64,000 bases of DNA from Ginglymostoma cirratum. Its lineage: Eukaryota. The notes under the pieces are model-generated. The model ran no database searches. It saw nothing but the letters and a program-made list of their open reading frames with translations, and was not told the origin of the DNA. Both the position numbers and the translations under genes were made by a program. The stretch is taken from NCBI GenBank assembly GCA_024137785.1, contig JAHRHZ010000068.1, positions 1,479,425 through 1,543,424 on the forward strand, given 5' to 3'. Shown one piece after another: positions 759 to 58,945 of the stretch; position 1 is the stretch's first letter, and the number at the start of each line of letters is the position of its first letter.

Positions 759-3700
759 CAGCGAAGGGTTCTTATTAACTTTAGGTTGGCTGGATAAAAC
801 CTTTGTTCTTGGGGTGATGGCTGGAGAATTAATCAATCCTAAAGGCATTTTTTTTGTATAATCATAGAAGAACACCAGAAAAAACTGCAATCGGCAAATC
901 AGTTGGAAGTTTTTTCAGGGGAGAGTCAAGAGTCTCTAAATTAGTATCTTTTCCTGATAGATGAAATTCTGCATGGTTCTGGCTAGAATTAATGTTTACT
1001 TCCATTAAACATTATTAGTTGGCCTTGTCAACAAGCCTGGTGTTTTGCCAGGTAGTATATTCATCATCCAGTTTCTGACAGCTTCAAATGAAAGCCATTT
1101 CACCTTCTTTGGTACCATTTTTGTATGAGCAGTGATGTCAACAAGTTAACAGACATGAAGGACGCAGGTAGGTTACTTTGCAATATCATAACTCATTCTT
1201 CAGCAGATTTGATCATTGACCACCCACACTTCATGCCTGCTTACCTTATGACCTAGAAGTGAAAAGGTGTACAGCAAACTGTGGCTAAAGCAGAGCTAAG
1301 ATAATGCTACAGTAGAAAGACATGGACACTGAAAATGAATTGCATCTTGTAGAAGATTATGACTTTCAATGCAAAATTTAAAGTAAGAGGTAAATGTTAT
1401 ATTTCTGTCAAGGAAGTTGCTAACAATGGGGTATGGTGAATGGGCAGGAATTATATTAGATGAATGGATCAGTATGCCATCAGGGAATAATCCACATTTT
1501 TTGTAATTTATTGCACTGCTGAGTTGTGAAGTGGATTTAAGTTTAAATGGCAATTCATATAAAATATCTAGTACAGCTCTCTTAAGTATCAGTCACAGTT
1601 TTCACTTTAGAGCTTTCAGTCTATCTCTAAGCCTGTATTTTACTTTCTTTATTTGACACCTGCTGTTTGTAATCTTATCACTCTTGAACTATAGTCTTAG
1701 AAGAAATTCTGGAACGGAAAAGCTGACCTTTGGTAATATGGAAAAAAAAAATTCAGACTACTATGAACGTCCAGCTGTGCTTGTCTTTTTGTGTTCTGTT
1801 TTCATCACTTTGTTCAGTTTCACTTAATAACATCTTCATCAAGAGATCACTGTGGTGCAGGGAACTGCATTTGCTGATCAAATTCAGTTGGATAACATTC
1901 TGATCCAGTAGCCTAAAACAGCAAAGATGTGCTTCGAATATAGAAGGATAAAGCAATGTGATTGATTGATTGCTTGTAACAAATAATGATAACTACATCT
2001 ATAAATATTATATACCATTCAGCACAATCCAAAAATAGTGTTGAGGGTAACACAGGGCTTCTTAGAACTGAGGAATGATGGGAAGATAGGACAACAGAAT
2101 GATGGAATGAACAGTAACTGTGTACACAAGGTTTCTCAATCAAGGTGCTGTAGGATTAAAATATATTTAGAAATATAGTATTCTTTAGATTAGTCTCTTT
2201 ATAGGACAATAGATAAGTAGAAAGCACAGATTTGAGGAATAAAAATGGAGACACCAAAGAACTATGGAGAAAATATGTATGATTAAGCTGATACATAACA
2301 CAGTGTGTGAATTATAAACTTTACTTGAAAAGGATGGAAAAAATGACAAGAAATCACATCCTCCCTCTCCACACAACTTGGCTTCACCCCAGATTACAAA
2401 TGATACAAAGTGTATGAGACTTGTCAGTGTTGAGTTGCGTTGTTAATGGCAGAGAGTATCAGAAAAGTGCTGCATAGTGTTCACATTGATACAGGTCTCT
2501 TTGGTATAGCTTGTAATTAACTCTTTATCATCTGAAAGAATCAGGTGAGGTGTAAAAAGCTATGGCTTTTTACTTACAATGGCACAAATGTATGAGGAAA
2601 ATTTATATCACATAACAGTGCTCCAGATGAAAAACAGTAAAACTTTAATCATGGCATGGTGAGTATTTTTTAATGTAAATGTGTCAGATAATCAATGGAC
2701 TTAAAGAGTTACCAAAATCCAATTGAGTGGTGTATGTTAAATTGAAATAGGTGCCATGGGGAGTTAAGACCCCGCCTTGTGCTCTGCTGGATGTAAGCCT
2801 ATCCTAGTTCCTGTCCTTCCCTTTTTCTTTTATCCTGCGGTGCTGCTAGACTATTAGAAGTACTGTCTGGGGTAATCTTTATAATACAGGTATTGTTTTG
2901 TGAGAAAATTCTTACATTTGAATGAAATGCATAAAGTGGAAGAGTTCAGTTTTAATGATAACAGTACACCCCTACACTCTACGATTTGTTTTCATTGGCA
3001 GGGCCTCCTGGATAAGAATGACATATTTATGCAGAAAGCTGGTATTCAATTTGGAATTTGTATGTATGGATGATGAACTAAACAGAACCTAGTTGTTTCT
3101 TTCCCTCCCTTGCCTATGGAAATGTGAAGTTATTGCAGACAAGTCTGAACCCATCTACACAGCACTTGGTCACCAGAATTAATAAATAGCGAATTCTTGG
3201 ATGATTCCAAGGGGACCAAAAGTGGTGATACTCTGTTTGCAATGCTGGGAAGTTAATAAAAAAAATCATTGCTGGAATAAAGTTTATGCACAGTAGTCTG
3301 TTTGTCCTGTATTTCAAACACCTGAATATGAGCCAGAAACACTATTGGCTGCTGTTTATTTCAAACTGATGCAGAGGGAAACATGCAAATAATGGAAATA
3401 AAAGACTATTGAATTTAAACTATTTAAATTGTTTACCCCATTTTTGACATTATTTATAGCTATATCTGAATCTTGGTTAATGGATTTTATATTGCAGCTC
3501 ACAGAAAAGTAATGAATAATAGCATTTTTTTGAACCATAACTTTCCTCTGTACATTATTACGATACAAAAAGTCATATTTCTTTGTACTGTAGTTATCTT
3601 TATATTTCTCCCACTTTATATATTGTACATCTGTACTAAGTATGACACTTGGAACTAACTTGAGTGTTTCCATTCTGAACCAGCGATAAGAGAGAAACAA

Positions 3701-3933
3701 ATGATTACTTAGCATCTTCAATGTAGTAAAAATGAGTGTTATAGTGGAGCAGAACAGACAATGACACGATAGGCATGATAGCTCAAAAGTGATAGATTTT
3801 TCCATGTCATTCATTCACTGAAATTTTCATCTCTGACAATATATACCTGTTTGTTACCTGAAAAAAAAAGTCTGTAACACTGATTTGCGATGGAAATTGC
3901 TGTATTTTCAAGTGTCAATAGATGTGTAAGAAA

Positions 3934-3983
3934 CAAGTTGGGCTAAAGGATCTGTTTCCATTCTGTACATCCCTATGACTCTA
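3934..3983 (+). repeat. 3' terminal fragment of HER1/CR1 LINE (or HE1 SINE tail)
   Basis: gggctaaaggatctgtttcca..ctgtacatccctatgactcta resembles the LINE 3' end at about 25985-26040. Confidence 0.6.
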
Positions 3984-4949
3984 AATAAAAGGCTAGTCCC
4001 AAAGGTGCAGCAATTTCCAAAAAATATATAATTGTTTGTATATTTCACAGCCGCAATACTTTTGTAGTCTTAATTTAGTGCTAAGAATGACCAACAAAAC
4101 CAATCATTACCCCAATTTCCAAGACATAAATATTTGAAATACCTGGATACTTGAAAAATGTGTCGTATCATCAAAAGATTTCAGTTTTGGATAAACATGC
4201 TTTCTGAAAAGCACCCAACATATGCATTTGTGGTGCCATTTTAATTTCCAGTAATGTTCAGTCCTTCTGGACAGACTGTTGGTTGTTAGGTGTGACTGCA
4301 AAGGCATTACTTTCTATTTATCATGATTCCACTTTCATGGCATTTTACTCAGCATGTGCTCAGTTATTTTCTTAAAAATAGCTTATTTCTGGTTTCCTTA
4401 GTGGTAGAGATTGTGTTTTTACTTTTTCTGCTAATTTATTGGTTACATCTCTGATGTTCCAGTCATTTTGAAGCATATGTGGAATATGCCTGGTTTACTT
4501 ATTGGTTTCATGGAAATATGCTGGTTTCCCAGTGGTTATGACGATGTTCCTGGTTTTCCTGGTGACTGAGTCAGTTGTGTGTCTGATGTGTATTTGGCCA
4601 GCAAGAATATATTTGAGTTTCTTGGATGAGTGGGAATGTCCCTGAGTTTCTTGATGCACATTGGCTATGTTTCTTGGATTATAGTTTATTAGATGTGGAT
4701 ACAGTTTTCTAGGCATGGTGTCCATTGGTTTTGTATTTGTTCTTACAAAGGTCTATCCACTTTATGGCAATTTGTACCCATTTTTCATGGTGCTTTGTTA
4801 ACTACACATCTGATGTATTTATGTTCAGTGTTTCTTGCTTTGTTGGTCACAGGTTCTGTTTTTGAATCTAAGTAGTCAGTGTAAATATGATTTTCATATT
4901 GATTTGAGGATAGATGAGTGGTTTAAAGAAGGGACAAATGAAAATACAT

Positions 4950-21509: not shown

Positions 21510-22204
21510 CGAGATAACAAGCATGGGGCTGGATGAACACAGCAGGTCAAGCAGCATCATAGGAGCAGGAAAACTTGACGTTTTGGGCCTAGACCCTTTT
21601 CTGATGAAGGGTCTAGGCCCGAAANNNNNNNNNNNNNNNNNNNNNNNNNNNNNNNNNNNNNNNNNNNNNNNNNNNNNNNNNNNNNNNNNNNNNNNNNNNN
21701 NNNNNNNNNNNNNNNNNNNNNNNNNNNNNNNNNNNNNNNNNNNNNNNNNNNNNNNNNNNNNNNNNNNNNNNNNNNNNNNNNNNNNNNNNNNNNNNNNNNN
21801 NNNNNNNNNNNNNNNNNNNNNNNNNNNNNNNNNNNNNNNNNNNNNNNNNNNNNNNNNNNNNNNNNNNNNNNNNNNNNNNNNNNNNNNNNNNNNNNNNNNN
21901 NNNNNNNNNNNNNNNNNNNNNNNNNNNNNNNNNNNNNNNNNNNNNNNNNNNNNNNNNNNNNNNNNNNNNNNNNNNNNNNNNNNNNNNNNNNNNNNNNNNN
22001 NNNNNNNNNNNNNNNNNNNNNNNNGCATCATAGGAGCAGGAAAACTTGACGTTTTGGGCCTAGACCCTTTTCTGATGAAGGGTCTAGGCCCGAAACGTCA
22101 AGTTTTCCTGCTCTTATGATGCTGCTTGACCTGCTGTGTTCATCCAGCCCCATGCTTGTTATCTCGGATTCTCCAGCATCTGCAGTACCTTTTATCTCTG
22201 ATAC
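21510..22204 (+). mobile_element. Palindromic Penelope-associated element with intact hammerhead core, spanning an assembly gap
   Basis: Inverted arms of about 90 bp. CTGATGA-AGGGTCTAGGCCC-GAAAC-GTC at 22072-22099. TSD aattgtgtgatgc at 21497-21509 and 22205-22217. Confidence 0.85.
21625..22024. other. Assembly gap (400 N)
   Basis: Run of N. Flanks 21554-21624 and 22025-22095 are identical. Confidence 0.99.
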
Positions 22205-24620: not shown

Positions 24621-24804
24621 CTGTTTGTATTGTCCCTTACTATCACTACAGTTCTGGTTCTATAAAAACTGCTACAGTTTCCTGTCTCATAGTGCCATAG
24701 TCATTTTGCTTATCTAGCCTGAAATCACTACTTTCAACTAAATGGGATGTGAGAACGTCAGACTTGTTGACCAGTTAAAAAGACTTGAGGCTACTGCCCT
24801 TCTA

Positions 24805-26040
24805 CCTGCAAGGAAGAGGGTTGATGAGTGCAGAGTGGTGGATATGATCTTTATGCACTTAAGTAAGACATTTGACAAGGTCCCTCACGGTAGAGTGGTA
24901 AGCAAGGTTAGATCACACAGAATACAGGGAGAACTAGCTATTTGGATACAGTACTGGCTCAAAGGTAGAATACACGGGGTGGTGATGGAGGGTTGCTTTT
25001 CAGACTGGAAGCCTGTGACCAGCAGTGTGCAACTAGGATCGGTGCTGGGTCCACTGCTTTTTGTCATTGATATAAATGATTTGGATGTGAACATAGGAGG
25101 TATGGCTAATAAGTTTGCAGATGACACTAAAATGGGAGTTATAGTGGACAGCAAAGAAGGGTACCTCAGAGTACAGCGGGATCTTGATCAGTTGGGCCAA
25201 TGGGACAAGGAGCAGCAAGATGGAGTTTAATTTAGATAAATATGAGGGGTTGCATGTTGGAAAGGCAAATCAGGACAGGACTTATACACTTAATGGTAAG
25301 GTCCTAGGGAGTGTTGCTGAACAAAGACACCTTGGAGTGCAGGTTCATAATTCCTTGAAAGTGAAGTCACAGGTAGATAGGATAATGAACATGGTGTTTG
25401 GTATGCATGTCTTTATTGGTCAGTGCATTGAGTATTGGAGTTGGGTGGTGATGTTGCCGCTGTACAGGACTTTGGTTTGTCCACTTTTGGAGTACTGCAT
25501 AAAATTCTGGTCTCCCTGCTATGGGAAGGATGTTGTGAAACCAGAAAGGGTTCAAGAAATATTCATGAGGATATTGCCAGGGTTGGAGTGTTTGAGCTCT
25601 AAGGAGAGGCTGAGCAAGCTGGGGGCTATTTTCCCTGGAGCATCGAGGCTGACCTTATAGAAGTTTATAAAATCATGAGGGACAATGATAGGGAGAATAG
25701 CCAAGGTTTTTTTCCTAGAGTGGGGGAGTCCAAAACTAGAGAGGGCATAGGTTTAAGGTGAGAGGGGAAAGATATAAAAGGGATCTAAGTGGCAACTTTT
25801 TCACGCAGAAGGTGGCATGTGTATGGAATGAGCTGCCAGAAGTAGTGGTGGAGTCAGGTACAGTTACAACATTTAAAAGGCATCTGGATGGGTATATATG
25901 AATAGGAAGGCTTTAAAGGGATAATGGGCCAAATGCTGGCAAATGGGATTAGATTTATCTATGATATCTGGTTGGCATGGATGAGTTGGACCAAAGGGTC
26001 TGTTTCATGCTGTAAATCTCTATGACTCTATGACTGTATG
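24805..26040 (+). mobile_element. 5'-truncated HER1/CR1 LINE, RT C-terminal half plus 3' UTR
   Basis: ORFs 24742-25230 (KTFDKVPH, GSVLGPLLF, KFADDTK) and 25184-25660 (LYRTLVCPLLEYC) are joined by a frameshift. Ends in ctatgact tandem repeats. Confidence 0.95.
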
Positions 26041-27749: not shown

Positions 27750-30073
27750 ATGCCATCTTTGTCAGCTCCACTTAAGCAGTGCACAGCATGCAAGGATAAT
27801 GTGGCAGACTGTGTAGGGAGTGCACTGCAATGTCCCAAGACCACTCCCTCCCCTGGACAGACCCAAACATCAGAACCTCATCTTCAACAGCCCTGAATGA
27901 AGAATGGGGTGCATTGAATTAATGCTTGACCTCAGTCGGGAGTTTGCGCATTGAAGTCAATGGCTGTAGTCACAGAGTGTAGCTGTTGACCCCCAGTAAC
28001 CATTCCTGTAAGACATCTGGCTTTCAAATTCAGCAGGAGCAGGACTTCTCAAGGACAAACGAGTGATGGCAGCTCCTAGGATACCTGGCGTCGATTTCCA
28101 AGATAGCGGTAACAACGATCACAGATGATTTGCCCATTGACAGTTTGGAATCCATTTCCATAAGACCATAAACATAGGAGTGGAAGTAAGGCCACTCGGC
28201 CCATCGCGTCCACTCCGTCATTTAATCATGGCTGATGGGCATTTCAACTCCACTTACCCGCACTGTCCCCGTAGCCCTTGATTCCTTGCGAGATCAAGAA
28301 TTTATCAATCTCTGCCTTGAAGACATTCAACGTCCCAGCCTCCACTGCACTCCGTGGCAATGAATTCCACAGGCCCACCACTCTCTGGCTGAAGAAATGT
28401 CTCCTCATTTCCGTTCTAAATTGACCCCCTCTAATTCTAAGGCTGTGCCCACGGGTCCTAGTATCCCCACCTAACGGAAACAACTTCCCAGCGTCCACCC
28501 TTTCTAAGCCATGCATTATCTTGTAAGTTTCTATTAAATCTCCCCTCAACCTTCTAAACTCTAATGAATACAATCCCAGGATCCTCAGCCGTTCATCGTA
28601 TGTTAGGCCTACCATTCCAGGGATCATCCGCGTGAATCTCCGCTGGACATGCTCCAGTGCCAGTATGTCCTTCCTGAGGTGTGGGGCTCAAAATTGGACA
28701 CAGTATTCTAAATGGGGCCTAACTAGAACTTTATAAAGTCTCAGAAGCACATCGCTGCTTTTATATTCCAACCCTCTTGAGATAAATGACAACATTACAT
28801 TCTCTTTCTTAATCACGGACTCAACCTGCAAGTTAACCTTTAGAGAATCCTGGACTAGCACTCCCAGATCCCTTTGTACTTCGGCTTTATGAATTTTCTC
28901 ACTGTTCAGAAAATAGTCCATGCCTGTATTCTTTTTTCCAAAGTGCAAGACCTCGCATTTGCTCACGTTGAATTTCAGCAGCCATTTCCTGGACCACTCT
29001 CCGAAACTGTCTAAATCATTCTGTAACCTCCCCACCTCCTCCGTATTACCTGCCTGTCCACCTAACTTTGTATCATCAGCAAACTTCGCCAGAATGCCCC
29101 CAGTCCCTTCATCCAGATCATTAATATATAAGGTGAACAGCTGCGGCCCCAACACTGAACCCTGCGGGACACCACTTGTCACCGGTTGCCATTCCGAAAA
29201 AGAGCCTTTTATCCCAACTCTCTGCTTTCTGTCAGACAGCCAATCCTCGATCCATGCCAGTAACTCACCTCGAACACCATGGGCCCTCACCTTACTCAGC
29301 AGCCTCCCATGAGGCACCTTATCAAAGGCCTTTTGGAAGTATAGATAGATAACATCCACTGGGTTTCCCTGGTCTAACCAACTTGTTACGTCCTCAAAGA
29401 ATTCTAACAGGTTTGTCAGGCACGACCTCCCCTTACTAAATCCATGCTGACTTATTCTAATCCGACCCTGCACTTCCAAGAATTTAGAAATCTCATCCTT
29501 AACGATGGATTCTAGAATTTTACCAACAACCGAGGTTAGGCTAATCAGCCTATAATTTTCCATCTTTTGTCTTGGTCCTTTCTTAAACAAGGGGGTTCCA
29601 ACAGCGATTTTCCAATCTGTTGGGACTTCCCCTGACTCCAGTGACTTTTGAAAGATCACAGCCAACGCCTCTGCTATTTCCTCAGCCACCTCCCTCAGAA
29701 CTCTCGGATGCAGCCCATCGGGCTTCTATTGATGAAGTTGAACCTTTGGCCCAAAGAGCATCACTGAAGTGCAGAATCGTACCGTAAGCGGCTCGGAGAT
29801 GTGCCACGATAATGCAGTGAGACTGGTACATGTGGAATGCCAATTTCTGTGGATGTCGGGGTGTGCCTATAACCATGTCCTGAGGTGATGCTGCCGGGTG
29901 TCCAAGATGGAGGTCCAGAGCAGCAGGTGCTGAGCTGGAGTCCCTGATTTTCTGAGAACCTCATTGGTTGGAAAAATTTCATTTTTGGCTAGGTCCTTGC
30001 TCAACATCCCAGTTGATTTTTCCCAAATTTCTCATCATGGTCCATGTCATTCAGGGCTGTGAAAATTCCACCC
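27750..30073 (-). mobile_element. PIF/Harbinger transposase pseudogene remnant, split by a CR1 insertion
   Basis: Minus-strand motifs occur in HARBI1/DDE_Tnp_4 order: GIPHV, FINR|[CR1]|GFQTVNGQIICD, IDARYPRSCHHSFVL, WLLGVNSY, GLLKMRF*CL, TVCHIILACCAL. TIR-like GGGTGGAATTTT ends at 30073. Confidence 0.75.
28160..29722 (-). mobile_element. Relatively young 5'-truncated CR1 LINE (complete RT domain and 3' UTR)
   Basis: ORF 28688-29689 (333 aa: NYRLISLTSVVGK, FQKAFDKVPH, GVPQGSVLGP, FADDTK) continues in frame after one TGA into ORF 28244-28627. Confidence 0.97.
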
Positions 30074-32429: not shown

Positions 32430-33330
32430 TACGTATTCAGACAACATGCTGTTACCCCCATTTGTGAGCTTTAGATGCTGCTGTCTGTCAGCCTCTGGTG
32501 GTTTATCTCTAGTGTCTGGATTTGCTTTAAGACTTGTATGTCTATCACAGTGGTGTTGCTTTGAATGTGAGATCAAAAGGAGATGAATTCCAGAAAAATT
32601 TTCCTTGTATGAAGAAAGGAACAGTCTTGTGTAAACATCCCCATGACAGCTCCCAATGAGTTATTTTACTGGAGCATTAGCACCCAGGATGACAGACAGG
32701 CAGAGACTACGTGCAAAATAGCAAATCAGTCCCTGTGTGCCAGCAGGCAGTTGCCACAACAGAAATAAGATTTCTAAAGGAATTTTGCTCCATTTTTATT
32801 GTAAACATTTGTGTGGCAGCTCATCCTTTTACAAGCTGTCTTTCCTTGCAGTCTTGCAAAGCAGGCACTGGATTTCTTTACGAGGAGCTGTTTGTACTGA
32901 GGCACTCACCTGACAGAAAGCAGCAGTATCATGAATAGAATCAAAGATAAATTTGAGAACAAAGTCAAGATGGCTTATTGTACACTTATGTTTGTCATTT
33001 ACTTATATGGGCATTGCTACTGTGGAAACAGGCCTTTTGCTGGCTAAAAAGGGCAGCCTTCCAGTTTATTTTCATTTCAGAGTGCTTCAGCTGCATAGCA
33101 CTTCCTGTTTATTCAACATCTTTACACCATTCTTCAGCCCCCGCTTTACAGCAACAGCCAAAGAACAACTGCAAGCCAACGGAAATTTAGAGGCATTAAG
33201 ATCTTTCGGTAAACTTCCCCACTCTGTAATTATTTGTGTCATATCCAGAATTAAATCTGCCAATTAAACTGTCCCAAAGAGCTGAACAGGGGAGTTGTCG
33301 AAATATGCAAATATTATGATTTAACCTTAA
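32430..33330 (+). promoter_or_regulatory. Putative internal promoter/enhancer block
   Basis: No recognisable repeats. Forkhead TGTAAACA at 32630 and 32800, FOX:ETS composite ACTTCCTGTTTAT at 33100-33112, TATA-like TAAAAAG at 33045 with Inr-like TCATTTC at 33072-33078. Confidence 0.45.
33007..33225 (+). other. Candidate alternative (first or cassette) exon of FOXP1 / conserved element
   Basis: Translations in different frames (FQFIFIS, VLQLHSTSCLFN, HLY, HSSAPALQQQPK..KPTEI*RH, RSFGKLPHS) resemble the human FOXP1 alternative N-terminus as recalled. It ends at TCT|GTAATT (33226). The frame from ATG 33007 is open to this donor and in phase with exon 34553. Confidence 0.6.
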
Positions 33331-34552
33331 ATTGATGGTAAATTAGGTCATGCTGATGAATAAGGAAAATGTTACAAAGAATCAATTTATATTTAATCAT
33401 TCATTTTGTATGTAAATAATGGAGATGACTGTACAACCAAAAAAATTCAGCTTACTAGAATCAAATAACAGGTAGTGACAAAGAAGAGCCAGTCTGCCAA
33501 AGCACACGCAATAAATGTTTGCAAAATAAAATTTAACTCCGTAAAAGTTGTCTTTTGTGATCAACAGTGGTCAGATGTTTGGAACTGGTCTAAACTATTT
33601 GTTTAATAGTAGGGGAGTAATCACATGGGGGAGGGGAATGGAAAGAGTGACTGAATTTATTTACTCAGATGTTATGCTGATGTAGGTGTGGAACTGAAAG
33701 TCACTGTGGGAACTGTGGGTTGTTTTTTGTTGGTATCTTCATAGTTCTGATGGTCATCGAATTTCCCAGCTTGTTGGTTTTGTTTATTCTGGACAGTGTA
33801 TGTTTGATTATTTATCAGAAGGAAAAGGGAGTAGCTTGGGCATAAAACTGACTGTGCTAGGTTTTATTTTTCCAGCAGTGTATAGTTTAGTACGTCGCAA
33901 ATCTTTTAAAGCCAGCATTCTATGGTATGATTTCTTTTGCTGAAATCTTTAATTCAATTCTAATTATCCCAAGTGTCGTTGTATCTTTAAGTTACCATTC
34001 AACGCTCCGGCCATTAATTTTCTCTAAATCCAACCTTTTATATCATTAAGGTTGGCTCGCTTTTTTTTTTATTTGTGAAATATTTTAATATATCCCATTT
34101 TCTTATTCTCCCACTCACAGCAACGAGGAATTCTTGGGTTTAGCTATATTGTAACATGCTAGCCAGCTCTTCATAATGCATTGTTCCTTTGGAAAATTTG
34201 ATATCTCCTGACAATCATCCAACAATATAGTCTGAAAATGGCATACTATTTTCATGGAGCAAGGAGACAATGGCATGCAACATTTTTTGTTGATATACCT
34301 TTATGTTGAATAAAAGCCCTGTTTAAGCTTAAAGAGACTTACTGAATGTAATTTGGCAGAATTATATGTGGCATTGTCATCAATCGAAATAAATCTAATG
34401 TATCTATTTAAAAAAAGGGTGTTGGTTTAAGCGGCAAAACAAACTGTATGAAGTGCCAGTTGTGGTAACCCTTCTTTGTGTGATGGAGTCGTAAACTGTC
34501 CCATTGGGTCCATTTATGGTTAAAAGGTGAATGTTATTCTCTTTTTATGTAG

Positions 34553-34642
34553 GCTTTTCAAGTTGCACGACAGCTCCTGCTGCAGCAACAAGCCAGTGGG
34601 TTAAAGTCTCCCAAGGGAAATGACAAGCAACCGACCTTACAG
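34553..34642 (+). CDS. FOXP1: Internal coding exon (90 nt, phase 0/0) of a FoxP forkhead transcription factor, N-terminal Q-rich region; best match FOXP1
   Basis: Acceptor tattctctttttatgtAG (34551-34552) and donor CAG|GTAAGT (34643). Translates without stops as [30 protein letters not shown]. Compare FOXP1 [34 protein letters not shown] and FOXP2 [30 protein letters not shown]. FoxP family is near certain. The FOXP1 call rests on NDKQPxLQ and on the upstream alternative-exon similarity. Confidence 0.85.
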
Positions 34643-37600
34643 GTAAGTGTATATTTATAGATTATATATAGTGTGTGTGTTCGAATCATTATGGGAAGAA
34701 TATGTCAGTGTACAACGGCCATGTACCATATTTATTGGAATAATGCAACATAATTAGTATAAAAGATTGTAAAAACTCAATATGATGCTATGTACTAAGG
34801 AAGTGGTTTGTTATGTTAGAGATATTTCATTTTCTAAGGGAATTTTTAAAAATTTAACTGTCTTGACCACCTTATTTGTGCAAATCCAAATACTTTGAAA
34901 TGAGCAAACCAGCCAGATTCATAGTCAAACTAAGAATGTTGTCATCGAGGGCACTCTTTTATAGTGGATTCTGTAACAGAACCCATGTGAATTCTTATCA
35001 AGGCTGGACACCCCCCCCCCCCCAATTTGAGATCATTATTAATATGAGTTTTAGTAATGCATTCAAGAAGAATTAAATGTGTACTATATTTATTCTAATG
35101 CTGCCTTAGATCTTTGGCATTTATATTTGCATCTATTCTGTACTAATGATTTTTGTTCTCTTCGTTGTCCCATTCAGAATCTACATTAAATGAAATGCTG
35201 TCCAGTCGTATGAATTCCTACCATTTTATTGGTCTCAATAAAATCATAAATTAAAAATATTCCACATTCCCCTAAACCCAGTCTAACATTACCATATTTT
35301 ATTGGTAAAGAAAGACTCATATCAGCTATTATACTTTCAATCTTAAGAAAGAAAGCTAAATATGACGTTTCAATTATATGTTTGGAAATTTGTTCTCACT
35401 TTTTAAGAAGGTGCATCTCCCCTAACTTGTCCTGTCCTCCACTGACATCTGTGCACAATGGGGTGAATTTTCTGGACCTGTTTGAGCACAGAAAATGAGT
35501 CCAAATATACCAGTGCTGGCTGGCTTGCCAATTGCCCACTGTTCTAGGTGCCACCATTCTTGTGAAGTAGCTTTGGGCTTGATTAGATTCACTGAGGGCC
35601 TTGTTAGCCAGGGTAAAGAAGGCTGACTAGGACTTTCCTTTTGGCTTCCAACTTCCTGACATGACAGAAAGCAGTTTGACTGCCTGGAGGCATGTAGCCA
35701 TTGGCCAACAGGCCAGGAACACTCTGGACAGGCCTACAAACCTCCCTGCCTGCCTGGATGTAGGAGAAGGATAAGGCCATTCAGCAAAGCGATACAAAGC
35801 CCACCTGCAGTGATGGCCTGGCTGATTTTTCTCTTCCATGATTACAGTTATAAAATAAAACAATGAGCAGTGCCTTCAGGTTGAAGCATCCTCTCAGTTA
35901 CTTAACTTTTGCTGCAGCCACGTGCTCTTTTCAAGCGAAACATCATCTGAGTGACCCTCCAGCCTTGAGAACCTGCCTTCTGCCCTTAATTGGACGGGGA
36001 GCCTGACTCCATGCAATTAGGTGGAGTTGTTGTCAAAATCTCAAATATGTCAGCTTCCTGTCTTCCCCCATCCACCATTCCTTCATCACCAATCAGGATT
36101 GAGACCAAGAACCAACTCCTGTTTACCACCCTAAACTTCAGAGATCAGGTAGTTGTCGCACAAACCAGCCATTGGGCTTGGATTCTCATTGGGTTAACTT
36201 TACAGATCTTTTAAAGGAAGACCAAATTTCATTTATAATCTATACAGATTTCTTGACAGTGAGCATGACATATGTTGGAAAAAGATTTTTAGTTAAAATC
36301 AGATTTGTAATTCAGGGAACTCAAGCTTCAGGTTGTCAGCTGCTGAAGGGCTAATATTGAAACTGTTTGTGAGTGGGCAGCAAACTTTGAGTGGCTGTTG
36401 CAAAATATCTCACATCGCTGACAGATGCCATCCTTCACTGAAACACTAAAAAAAACTAGTAACTTAAATGACAGCAAAGAAACTCGTCTTTGCAATTAAT
36501 TGATTGGCACAATTGAAACTGAATTTGGACAGTACTTCCCTCCTCCTGTAATACCAGGAACACGTCAGCAGCTGAAACAAGACAATACGTGCAAATATTC
36601 TGTCGCAAACTATAGCTGCATTCATTTTTGTGCGCACTGGATAACCTTTAATATTTTTACCTTCAGCACCCTACCAAGAATGGTAGGGATAATGGACTTA
36701 CAATTTCAACTCTATTCGTGAAAGTGAGCCCATCATTTAGGGTTTGCTGTTGCATTCAGTTGCAAAAAATGTTATTTACAGTGAACTAATATTCGTGTCA
36801 ATTGTTGAAAGGTGTAGGAATATTCATTCTCTAGCGTGAATTGGATCAATAAATTGTTGTTTGCTAGTCTGAATTTTTGATCTGCTGACCCTTCTTTAGC
36901 TTAAGACTTGGACTTTTCTCGCTTTAAGTGAATGAAGTATCATTTTTCTTTTGCCATCATTAGTTTTCATTTGTTGCTTGCAGAAATAAATATGAATACT
37001 GCTTGTGGATTATATGAAGCAGATATTGTGTAAAATGTTATCAGCTTCTCATTTTGGAATGTGAAATATTGCCTGGAGATGTATAACATAACTCTCCAAG
37101 TTGATGTACAGCGTAACATTTTGAGGAAGGGCAAAAGACAAACTAACTGTGCTGGACTGGTCATAAGTGTGCAAATTGCTTACAATTTTCCTCAAATGTC
37201 ACGTGTAATTATGGACATCCCTTCCCCCACTACTTGGTTTACCCATAGAATCTTACAAAAGAGACTCCCACCTAGCTAATTAACATTATCACTGAAATGG
37301 TAGGGTTGAGTCATTAGTTCCATGTGCATTTAATTAGAGGCAGACTGAAATTGGATTTAACTTATTACTTTTCATGGATCACTTTCTTGTCATCACTTCA
37401 AATTGGATTGCAGCCCCAGGTAACTAATTATAGGAGCCACAGGATCAAGAGTGAAGAAGAAGGTAATTAGGAACCACAGCGTTGGACCCTTGCTGATAGT
37501 CCACTAGTACTGTGGAAAAAATATAGTTTTATTTCGTAGCACTGCTGCAAGCAGGGGCATTAAAATTGTGGAAATAATATTCTGCTCTGTCTGGAATCAT

Positions 37601-45349: not shown

Positions 45350-45700
45350 GTTAATACGTTCAGCTGTAATAAACATTAACTACAACTAAACAGGAAGTGA
45401 TACTTTTCTTCTAACTTGCATGACATCTGTTTTCCTGCACTTTTAGTTTCTTGTCACAGCTGATTTATCCAGAGAAAGTATGTGTGTGATATTGTTCCCC
45501 AATTAAATGGGGGAGCAGATTGATGTGAACTCAGATCTCTAGCATCAGTGGAGAAGTAACAATAACTTCAGTGTTCACTTCAGATCTTAACATTCATATT
45601 GTGGCAGAGTTCTCCATAATGCTATTAATGGGCTGTTTGTCCAATGGTATTACATAAGAATAAGCTAATGGTAATTGACTACTCAATTCGCTGAGCTTGT
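45350..45700. promoter_or_regulatory. Putative intronic enhancer with FOX:ETS motif
   Basis: TAAACAGGAAGT at 45387-45398, a second forkhead-like ATAAACA, two CAGCTG E-boxes and a TTATC site within about 110 bp of unique sequence. Confidence 0.35.
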
Positions 45701-51825: not shown

Positions 51826-52197
51826 AAAGACCTTGGCTATCCTCCCTATTGTTGCCGCTCATGATTTTATAAACCTCTATAAGGTCACCCCTCGGCCTCT
51901 GACGCTTCAGGGAAAATAGCCCCAGTCTATTTAGCCTTTCCCTATAGCTAAACCCTCCAGTTCTGGCAACATCCTAGTAAATTTTTTCTGCATCCTCCCA
52001 AGTTTAACAACATCCTTCCTTTAGAACTGTGGTCAGAATTGTATGCAGTATTCCAAAAGTGGCCTCACCAATGTCCTGTACAACTGCAACATGATATCCC
52101 AACTCCTATACTCGGTGTTATGACCAGTGAAGGCAAGCATGCCAAGCTCCTTCTTCACCACCCTGTCTACCTGTGACTCCACTTTCAAGGAACTGTC
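51826..52197 (-). mobile_element. HER1/CR1 ORF2 fragment
   Basis: SSLKVESQVDRVVKK...LYRTLVRPLLEYCIQF in ORF 52033-52260. Confidence 0.9.
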
Positions 52198-53853
52198 TGA
52201 TGGCCAAGAGCATCTTGGCAAAATTCCTATGGGTTTTGGAGGTCCTGAGTGTATTGCCAAAAACTACATCACTAGTGCACGTACAGACTTGGTAATTGGA
52301 ACAACTGGCAGAGTGTGTGATACTGCCTGTGGCAATAGGTGAGAAGTGGAAGCATTGTAATCAGGTTTCCCTTTAAGCTTTATGCATAGCTGCTCTAATG
52401 TACCGCACACGGCAGATGGCATTAGCACGCCACTCGCGGCATTCTCCTTACCATGCACAGCCCTCAGAGGCCTGGGCGGCTGGGAATAAAATGAGACAAA
52501 ATTCTGATTGTGACCAAACTCACCACTTCCATGTTCTCTTTCACAACCATCACCCTGATAGTCCACCCATTCATCCCTGCTAGGAATGAGCAGGAGAGCA
52601 GTTGCTGCAGATCAGTGAGGTGATGAATAGCCAAGGCTAGGGCTTCATTAATCTTATTTAAGATGTTATTTATTGCGTGCAAACTATCGATTAGGGTCAC
52701 TGTGATACTCATTTACCTGCCATGTTTGATGCTTCATGCACTATTTTAATGGAGAAGGTCCATTGTCACTGATGCTCATTATACCAGTACACTTGAACTG
52801 CAATGGTACTGCTCTAGGATTACTCACCTCCCCCCACCTGCCCACCCGTGATGTTCAGAATCTGCATCTAGCTGAGTAAAACTTGGAGCTTCTTATGTCC
52901 TTCTCATTGCTGTTCCTGCCTTCACCTTCTATCCTGTTCACTTGAATTGTGGGAATCCCCAGGTGTAAACCCAACTAAAGCATGAGGATTTGTTTCTGCA
53001 GTAGATGGTGCACTCTCAGAGCTCACCTCAGAGGGAGCAACACCTCCAAGAGGTCCTCGTTGTCCTCCTACAATGCCTCCTGTGAGATGTTTGGAGGCCT
53101 TGTGGGAGACTAAGGGCAATACATTAAAATTGTCAAGCTAAAATTGTTAACTGATCACAATGTTTCTGATCATATTTCACTTGCTGCTGACATCAGGTCA
53201 GCAGGACAGAGTGTTGAGTGCCATGTGGCTGTATGATATTTATATATGTCAACGGCCTGCTGGTCACCAGCCATGTTGAGACTTATTTAAGGTCCAACAT
53301 AACCTCATCTGCTGTTAAAAGATTGATAATGGCCCACTTCTGCTTCTCTGCCTGTTCATGGTGTTTTGTGCTTAATTCTGAATGGAGGGAAGAAGAGATC
53401 TAGGATGGAGAAAAATGGCATATTTTGAACAAATGAATGGACAGCACCTGTTGAGGGTGACAATGAGGTAAAAACATGTCATTTCATAAGCAAGAAGCTG
53501 AGTTTCAGTGCTGGTTGACATATGGGGGTGTGAAGAAGTGCGTAGACAGAATATGTTCAGCGCAACTGTAGGTAAGTTATTGTGAGGAATGATGTCCTAG
53601 AATAAGCTTGAGAAGACATAGTGAGTGGAATTTAATGAGGTGTGTATTTGATTGGGTGGGAGGGTACAGAGTGGGTAATCTACACCACCTCTCTACCTCT
53701 AAGTGCAGACAGGAAGGCTCATGGATCGCTTCTGGAAGCTAATTAAGGTTCTTAAGTGGTTAATTAGTACAGATTTAAGGGCCTAATCCCATTTCTGCTG
53801 TTAATCAACCATGGGACTACTGTTTCAAGTTTGGTAGCAGCTGTGGAGTTAAT

Positions 53854-57734: not shown

Positions 57735-58205
57735 AGGTAAGGCTGTAGATTTGCTCGCTGACCTGATGTGTTTGGTTGCGGATGTTTCGTCACCCTGCTA
57801 GGTAACATTGTCAGTGTGCCTCCTGGTGAAGCGTTGGTGTTCTGTCCCTCTTGTTATTTATATGCCTCGGTTTGCTGTGGTGGTTGGCATTACGTCCGGT
57901 TCTGTTTTTCAGTGGTTTGCATATCGGGTCAAGTTCAGTGTGTTTGCTGATAGAGTTCTGGTTGGAATGCCAGGCCTCCAGGAATGCCCTGTCATGTCTC
58001 TGTGTGCCTTGTGCTGTTATGGATGTGTTGTCCCAGTCGAATTTGTGTCCTTCTTCTTTGTCTGTGTGTATTGAGACCAGTGAGAATTGGTTGTTCGTGT
58101 ATACTTATTGTTAGCTTTCTTCCAGTTTGGCCTATGTAATGTTTCTCACAGCCTTTGCATGGTATTTTGAATATTATGTTGGTTGTGGCTATGGGATCCA
58201 AGCTA
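57735..58205 (-). mobile_element. Penelope-like element 3' remnant: GIY-YIG endonuclease plus pLTR with hammerhead motif
   Basis: NIIFKIPCKGCEKHYIGQTGRKLTISIHE, then after a frameshift SLVSIHTDKEEGHKFDWDNTSI...RAFLEAWHSN. Downstream is CTGACAA-TGTTACC-TAGCAG-GGTGAC-GAAAC-ATC (57814 to 57781). Confidence 0.9.
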
Positions 58206-58945
58206 CAAATCTTCTTAAAAACTTCAAACTTTGGAGGTAGTTGCATTTATCATCTCCATTTTGATGCCCACACCTTCTGGCGTTTGATCCCAAATGATTC
58301 TCAGTGGTTAATTTTGTAGAAATCTAATACAAATGTAAATTTTAATAATTATTAATTTTATGAATATTGCTTGCTTCTTTCACCTGTCTCTAATAGGTTA
58401 TTAGAGTTGTGATAGAACCAAGCAGTATTCTTCTCATGCCTGTTTGACCCCCATCGGCTACAAAAGTTTGCCACTCAGCTGTCTTCTTGTACACTACAAA
58501 GAAATTTCCAAGTAGTTCTGAGGTTTTAGTGTGTTTTACACTAACTCTTGTACAAATGGGAATGTAAATGACTAGACCAGGAAAGTCATGTGCATTGATC
58601 TCTAGAGAATAACTATGAGTATAACACCTTTATTTGTGTCTTGGCCAATTAGATATATACTTTTGAATTAATGCTTAGTCTAGGTCACTGTGAGAAAGCC
58701 TGTTCAACAATTCTAGGAAATAGATAGAATTAATTCTTAACCATTTTCCCTGCTTTCCGCTCCAATCCATCCATGTCTACTGCTCTGATCTACAAGGCTT
58801 ATTTTTCTCTCCCCTCAACCCTGCTGACTAGCATCTTCCCAATAAAAAAAATCTGACCACTGTGCTTTTGTCACCCAAAATCCCACATCTCATTGTACTC
58901 ACAAGAAAGTTGAATTTTGAAGCACTGAAAGCTTCTTTAAAAGCA

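Follow-up and report, generated by a model that had tools for sequence, protein, structure and literature searches.

The analysed window, a 64,000-nt stretch of shark DNA (C68:1479425-1543424 in a genome of 4.36 Gb), contains one recognised coding exon, at 34553-34642. This is exon 7 of FoxP1, the second coding exon of the gene, which begins in phase 0. Shark FoxP1 sequences are the nearest proteins by protein comparison, the remaining FoxP1 exons lie downstream on the same contig, and the paralogue on contig C21 is FoxP2, judged from its exon sequences. Exon 6 is found at C68:1434570 and exon 7 at C68:1513977, intron 6 being 79 kb long. A conserved element sits inside this intron, 1.3 kb upstream of exon 7. 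It belongs to the exon 6-7 interval of FoxP1 (not FoxP2 or FoxP4) and is single-copy at the sensitivity used, no second copy having been found in the genome search or in the 20 kb ahead of FoxP2 exon 7. The main features, in window coordinates, are:

32601..34000, no strand assigned: module rich in forkhead motifs (13 RYAAAYA sites) around the element; predicted from sequence as a likely internal promoter or enhancer
33016..33195, + strand: conserved homologue of the alternative first exon of mammalian FOXP1, from the 5' leader through codon 50 of 62; does not code in the mammalian frame
33056..33058, + strand: GCC in place of the mammalian start ATG, from the profile alignment
33100..33111, - strand: FOX:ETS composite motif TAAACAGGAAGT, the best-conserved core of the element; 2 in the window against 0.11 expected
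33188..33190, + strand: TAG where mammals have Gln, in the mammalian frame, from the alignment
33226..33231, + strand: GT proposed as a donor, TCT/GTAATT; position plausible, score weak, use not seen
34553..34642, + strand: FoxP1 exon 7, with a strong donor; in run X3 the exon 6 end is joined ahead of it

The first-pass annotation of this DNA had recognised a homologue of the human FOXP1 alternative first exon from peptide fragments spread over three frames. All these fragments are present in the frames listed, and the homology is borne out: frameshift-aware alignment of the 62-aa mammalian peptide scored 94 at 33059-33187 (next-best 42 among 254 tiles), and a back-translated DNA profile scored 83 at the element (next-best 31 among 182 tiles of the window). 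Over 33016-33195, 80 of the 100 fully determined bases are identical to the DNA of the placental alternative N-terminus, represented by a back-translated profile and a 5'-extended cat model. The comparison was thus made with mammalian proteins and their back-translation, not with mammalian genomic DNA; the similarity is collinear, significant and far above chance. The shark DNA has 1-nt deletions after 33078, 33116 and 33125, and a 3-nt gap follows 33163. The ATG and open frame of mammals are absent from the shark element, and the missing start, the frame switches and the TAG for Gln were all correctly described before. As the shark DNA has no start codon and no reading frame, the element is likely to be old gene-control DNA; the earlier view that the constraint is regulatory rather than coding agrees with a homology kept without a shared reading frame. 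No Rfam match to a structured RNA was found at E<=0.1, and a search of metagenome contigs with the 20-nt core pattern gave one match, by chance, in a bacterial operon (L008). No earlier description of the shark element was found in the literature, judged from titles and abstract openings. On these alignments, the element is genuinely homologous to a known mammalian exon, ancient and non-coding.

The 62-aa alternative N-terminus was found in a rhinoceros FOXP1 isoform (P0072) by a search with the zinc-finger exon, and in P0135, labelled human Q9H334-3, by a cluster listing. The human isoform cited in the first-pass annotation therefore exists, its residues 7 and 24 differing from those given there. 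The peptide occurs in 17 of the 288 proteins compared, all 17 mammalian, and another search, with 13 hits among 17 candidates, likewise showed it in placental mammals only; since the comparison covered the representative of each cluster and at most 15 of the members listed for it, absence of the peptide outside placentals is weak evidence. Nine of its 62 columns are variable in 14 sequences. Primates and camelids differ at 4 of 62 positions in the peptide and at 4 of 53 in true exon 6; with the peptide as conserved as exon 6, either coding or DNA constraint fits. The whale model P0050 (bmy_17726T0, presumably bowhead whale from its prefix) reads 16 codons of the exon in another frame and then continues in the usual one. 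This reading is compatible with the camel peptide codon by codon (0 of 10000 shuffles were compatible), and the two frames combined fix the mammalian DNA, the FOX:ETS motif included. The whale and camel readings imply a 1-nt frame break in P0050, possibly an assembly error. This apparent break lends added weight to the earlier suggestion that the coding use in mammals is probably secondary.

Conservation of the mammalian exon in mouse may reportedly have been described already, by Brown in 2016. From its position and product size, the mammalian exon is very probably the one called 'exon 6b' in the account given by PMC3887110, where its transcripts are reported as common by 5'RACE in human lymphomas and the exon is annotated with both 573-aa and 76-kDa products. 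The main short lymphoma isoform, as summarised in PMC5394978, comprises exons 7-21 and is translated from Met101 in exon 8; alternate 5' exons are reported in mouse too (PMC7145990).

The FOX:ETS composite motif AAACAGGAA is present in the shark element and conserved in mammalian DNA; throughout the motif the decoded mammalian DNA agrees with that of the shark, one base being ambiguous. The ETS:FOX2 composite is described from enhancers of endothelium and blood (PMC5295818). Intron 7 contains another perfect FOX:ETS motif, at 45387-45398. Around the element, 13 forkhead motifs occur in 32601-34000, against a mean of 3.2 in dinucleotide shuffles, and none of 2000 shuffles reached 13 (the range was set by us). 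This segment ranks first among 45 non-overlapping tiles (11 sites in the next), is tied by 3001-4400 in sliding windows, and exceeds the upstream intron, where the maximum is 10 in 31 tiles. No TATA box was found in 32601-34552. Contig sequence from organism B differs at 17 of 332 bases over 33097-33428, against 57 of 459 in the nearby intron at 34080-34538 (Fisher p=0.0005), and its conserved contig extends 200 nt beyond 33225, so conservation does not end there. The earlier account of the element is supported on regulatory constraint; it overlooked the FOX:ETS core, the cluster of forkhead motifs and the downstream donor region used in a horn shark model.

It had also taken the splice donor of the mammalian exon to be conserved in the shark, at GT 33226. 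The local alignment to the mammalian exon stops at 33195, 30 nt before this GT. When the last 13 mammalian codons were forced onto the shark DNA, GT 33226 gave the best fit among the five GTs tried, and 14, 20 and 23 of 300 random sites fitted as well in the three profiles used (p about 0.05-0.08). In a matrix of donor base frequencies TCT/GTAATT scores -3.3, ranks 33 of 119 local GTs and is equalled or beaten by 33% of the window's 3672 GTs; with the same matrix the true donors of exons 6 and 7 score 1.4 and 8.8. The site has no G at -1 or +5, does not resemble the U1 consensus and scores like a background GT. With the alignment ending at 33195, a marginal fit and a background-like score, we do not uphold conservation of the donor.

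Use of this donor in the shark, also implied before, was sought in contigs of four of the seven listed runs, placed on 32840-34700. None of the listed runs is recorded as RNA; three of the four were guessed to be RNA and one is of unknown kind. Over this interval, contigs of the three possible RNA runs contain no splice joint from the element region with any donor, and hence no 33225-34553 joint; contigs of X1, X2 and X3 cross 33225 unspliced, and exon 7 was seen joined to no exon other than exon 6, in X3. Since X1 and X2 extend over parts of the intron and leave exon 7 uncovered, they may be DNA and uninformative on expression; X3 is taken as RNA because the exon 6-exon 7 end is present. As contigs lose rare splice forms, the missing joint means lack of support for the donor, not its absence. 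In X3 the element has much less depth than exon 7, with an increase in the direction of the exon; this was discounted, as parts of one gene cannot be ranked by the depth of contigs. X3 also has an 839-nt high-depth contig that runs from exon 7 into intron 7 (34556-34669) and could represent a transcript ending in intron 7.

Three sites between GT 33226 and exon 7 bear on how transcripts might leave the module:

33335..33343, + strand: candidate donor ATG/GTAAAT, which could give a Met-AFQ start; outscores GT 33226 (2.0 at 33338)
33922..33930, + strand: candidate donor ATG/GTATGA; outscores GT 33226 (1.6 at 33925)
33927..33992, + strand: homologue of the horn shark alternative 5' exon (P0189), with the exon end at 33986; the donor, TTAAGT here, is dead

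Five shark models begin with Met-AFQ and therefore require an exon ending in ATG. Among the 101 ATG/GT sites of intron 6, 17 score as plausible donors, nine of them above both local ones, and the Met-AFQ exon has no unique position among these sites. The best-scoring ATG/GT donor of the intron (ATG/GTGAGT, 2656-2664) stands just ahead of the forkhead cluster at 3001-4400, where 13 sites fall in 1400 nt; the region is a candidate for the Met-AFQ first exon or for a second regulatory module. In a sheep FOXP1 isoform (X5, P0158) Met is joined straight to exon 7, as in the five shark models, and an ATG-ending first exon may be common to sheep and sharks. A search of protein cluster representatives with exon 7 gave four matches, none informative.

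Horn shark P0189, one automated gene model, begins in the homologue of 33927-33986 and joins exon 7, its donor lying about 760 nt beyond GT 33226. At the end of this exon the present genome has TCT/TTAAGT and the organism B contig TTT/GTAAGT, in exact register; X3 has a loose end behind 33974, near the same point. Two further alternative exons of intron 6 are recognisable. The first (L013:6794-6826, C68:1461293 onward) has AT instead of GT at its donor here; its N-terminus of 11 aa appears in the annotation of three further sharks, a turtle and a frog. The second (L013:8823-8867) is a homologue of a zebra shark alternative N-terminal exon and carries an in-frame TAG ahead of an intact donor. 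With one exon broken by a lost GT and the other by a TAG, donors and short ORFs in this intron appear to turn over quickly.

The reading that we favour, with a probability slightly below 0.6, is that the element is a non-coding homologue likely kept since the jawed-vertebrate ancestor, within a forkhead/ETS-bound module that is probably an internal promoter of intron 6, and that the mammalian peptide is secondary. Forkhead and ETS factors, possibly including FoxP1 itself, would bind the module, which would start transcripts that skip the first coding exon, exon 6. In sharks these transcripts would exit via donors downstream of 33226 that differ between species, and the product would be an N-truncated FoxP1 translated from the exon-8 methionine or from Met-AFQ. 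On this DNA a start codon, an open frame and a functional donor were probably acquired in an ancestor of placental mammals; the 62-aa peptide would then be a secondary reading, and its apparent conservation would come largely from the underlying regulatory DNA. Tentatively, this could be carried further: the internal FOXP1 promoter of the lymphoma-associated truncated protein may be as old as jawed vertebrates, forkhead/ETS-driven and possibly autoregulatory, with transient donors and frames, and the human 62-aa N-terminus may have arisen de novo over FOX:ETS sites, so that the conserved residues of the peptide would spell the FOX:ETS motif.

The chief rival, unlikely but to be taken seriously, is a plain enhancer that was later repurposed: the shark element would be only an intronic enhancer of the FOX:ETS type, possibly endothelial or of the blood, and the promoter and first exon would have been added later, toward mammals, through gain of a donor. 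The weak GT 33226 and the lack of any spliced product in the contigs agree with this, as do the reported association of FOX:ETS motifs with endothelial and blood enhancers (PMC5295818) and the documented conversion of enhancers to promoters with changes in U1 sites (PMC6172195). Against it, the horn shark model has a 5' exon within the module whose donor is retained in organism B, and the end of the mammalian exon still fits GT 33226 best of the five GTs.

The same fit, with a collinear end at TCT/GT matched by 14-23 of 300 random sites, is the main argument for the version of the first-pass annotation, in which the shark has the same first exon as 5' UTR, spliced from the same donor, 33226. 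True donors can score low in the matrix (1.4 for exon 6), and rare splice forms may be lost from contigs. We nevertheless consider this version improbable, given the score of -3.3 without G at -1 and +5, the rank of 33 among 119, the unspliced contigs of X1, X2 and X3 over 33225, and an exon 7 seen joined only to exon 6. Less probable still is a coding exon already present in the common ancestor and later degraded in cartilaginous fishes. Together the three 1-nt gaps make up 3 nt and restore the frame between the ends (1 in 3 by chance), and the peptide is well conserved within mammals, but the N-terminus is absent from non-mammalian FoxP1 among cluster representatives and listed members, and DNA identity of about 80% without a frame implies that constraint persisted without coding.

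The remaining alternative is a shark-specific N-terminus encoded by the element itself, which had been raised as a possibility. Two open reading frames are concerned:

33007..33225, + strand: 73-codon frame from an ATG, in phase with exon 7; probably incidental
32931..33047, + strand: upstream ORF with ATGs at 32931, 32970 and 32988 and a stop at 33045-33047, overlapping ATG 33007 out of frame

The frame from ATG 33007 indeed runs through 73 codons without a stop and would enter exon 7 in phase if spliced at 33225. An in-phase ATG frame of at least 73 codons precedes only 28 of 3599 GT sites in the window (0.8%), and 11 of the 73 codons are in register with the mammalian peptide. The starts of 70 cartilaginous-fish FoxP1 proteins are 46 canonical, 13 at the exon-8 Met, 5 Met-AFQ and 6 other, none of the 70 beginning with the 73-aa frame; searches of proteins, Pfam and the Atlas, all weak tests, gave no match to it. 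ATG 33007 has a poor -3 context, and ATG 32970 of the overlapping ORF is in a strong one. With these results and the weak donor, a 73-aa N-terminus of this shark is the least credible of the readings.

Returning to the favoured reading of an old module with a probable internal promoter, the closest known counterpart is the mammalian alternative first exon (Q9H334-3), with which the shark element shares homologous DNA, the intron, a position upstream of exon 7 and the FOX:ETS core; it differs in having no ATG, no frame, a TAG, a weak donor and no splice seen. A second counterpart is provided by the internal promoters of the short isoform, FOXP1S or delta-N100 (PMC5394978, PMC7145990). Any transcripts with starts between exons 6 and 7 would be translated from the exon-8 methionine, and 13 of the 70 cartilaginous-fish proteins begin there. 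The FOXP1S promoters are presented in these papers as demonstrated in human and mouse B cells, whereas the shark promoter is putative. The conversion of regulatory DNA to a 5' exon, accompanied by altered U1 sites, is described in mammals for P/E elements (PMC6172195) and resembles the history proposed here; the FOXP1 case would span the jawed-vertebrate distance and include an extra step to a coding N-terminus.

Among enhancers, the same composite motif within FOXP1 is reported for FOX:ETS endothelial enhancers, including Foxp1+138 (PMC10952167, PMC11896612, PMC5295818). This one is a published enhancer, while the shark element is a candidate. We rejected identity of the two, as the coordinates of Foxp1+138 place it upstream of the first coding exon on the gene map. 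These coordinates are given as hg19 chr3:71,493,515-886 (PMC10952167, PMC11896612).

On the favoured reading, an internal control region of FOXP1 with relevance to disease would predate the divergence of sharks and mammals, and its FOX:ETS site would be a testable target. Variants in the human exon may have their effect through transcription and not through the protein. Conserved non-coding elements are common in introns of developmental regulators, so the element by itself is unsurprising; its interest lies in the probable origin of the mammalian peptide on a FOX:ETS regulatory module, which would illustrate how old regulatory DNA can give rise to a coding N-terminus.

Elsewhere in the window, broken reverse-transcriptase-like fragments of LINE type, ordinary repeats recognised by eye from the list of ORFs, lie at 24742-25660, 28244-29725, about 52000-52300 and 57800-58250. 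An assembly gap of 400 N at about 21625-22025 has near-identical flanks and could mark a false duplication.
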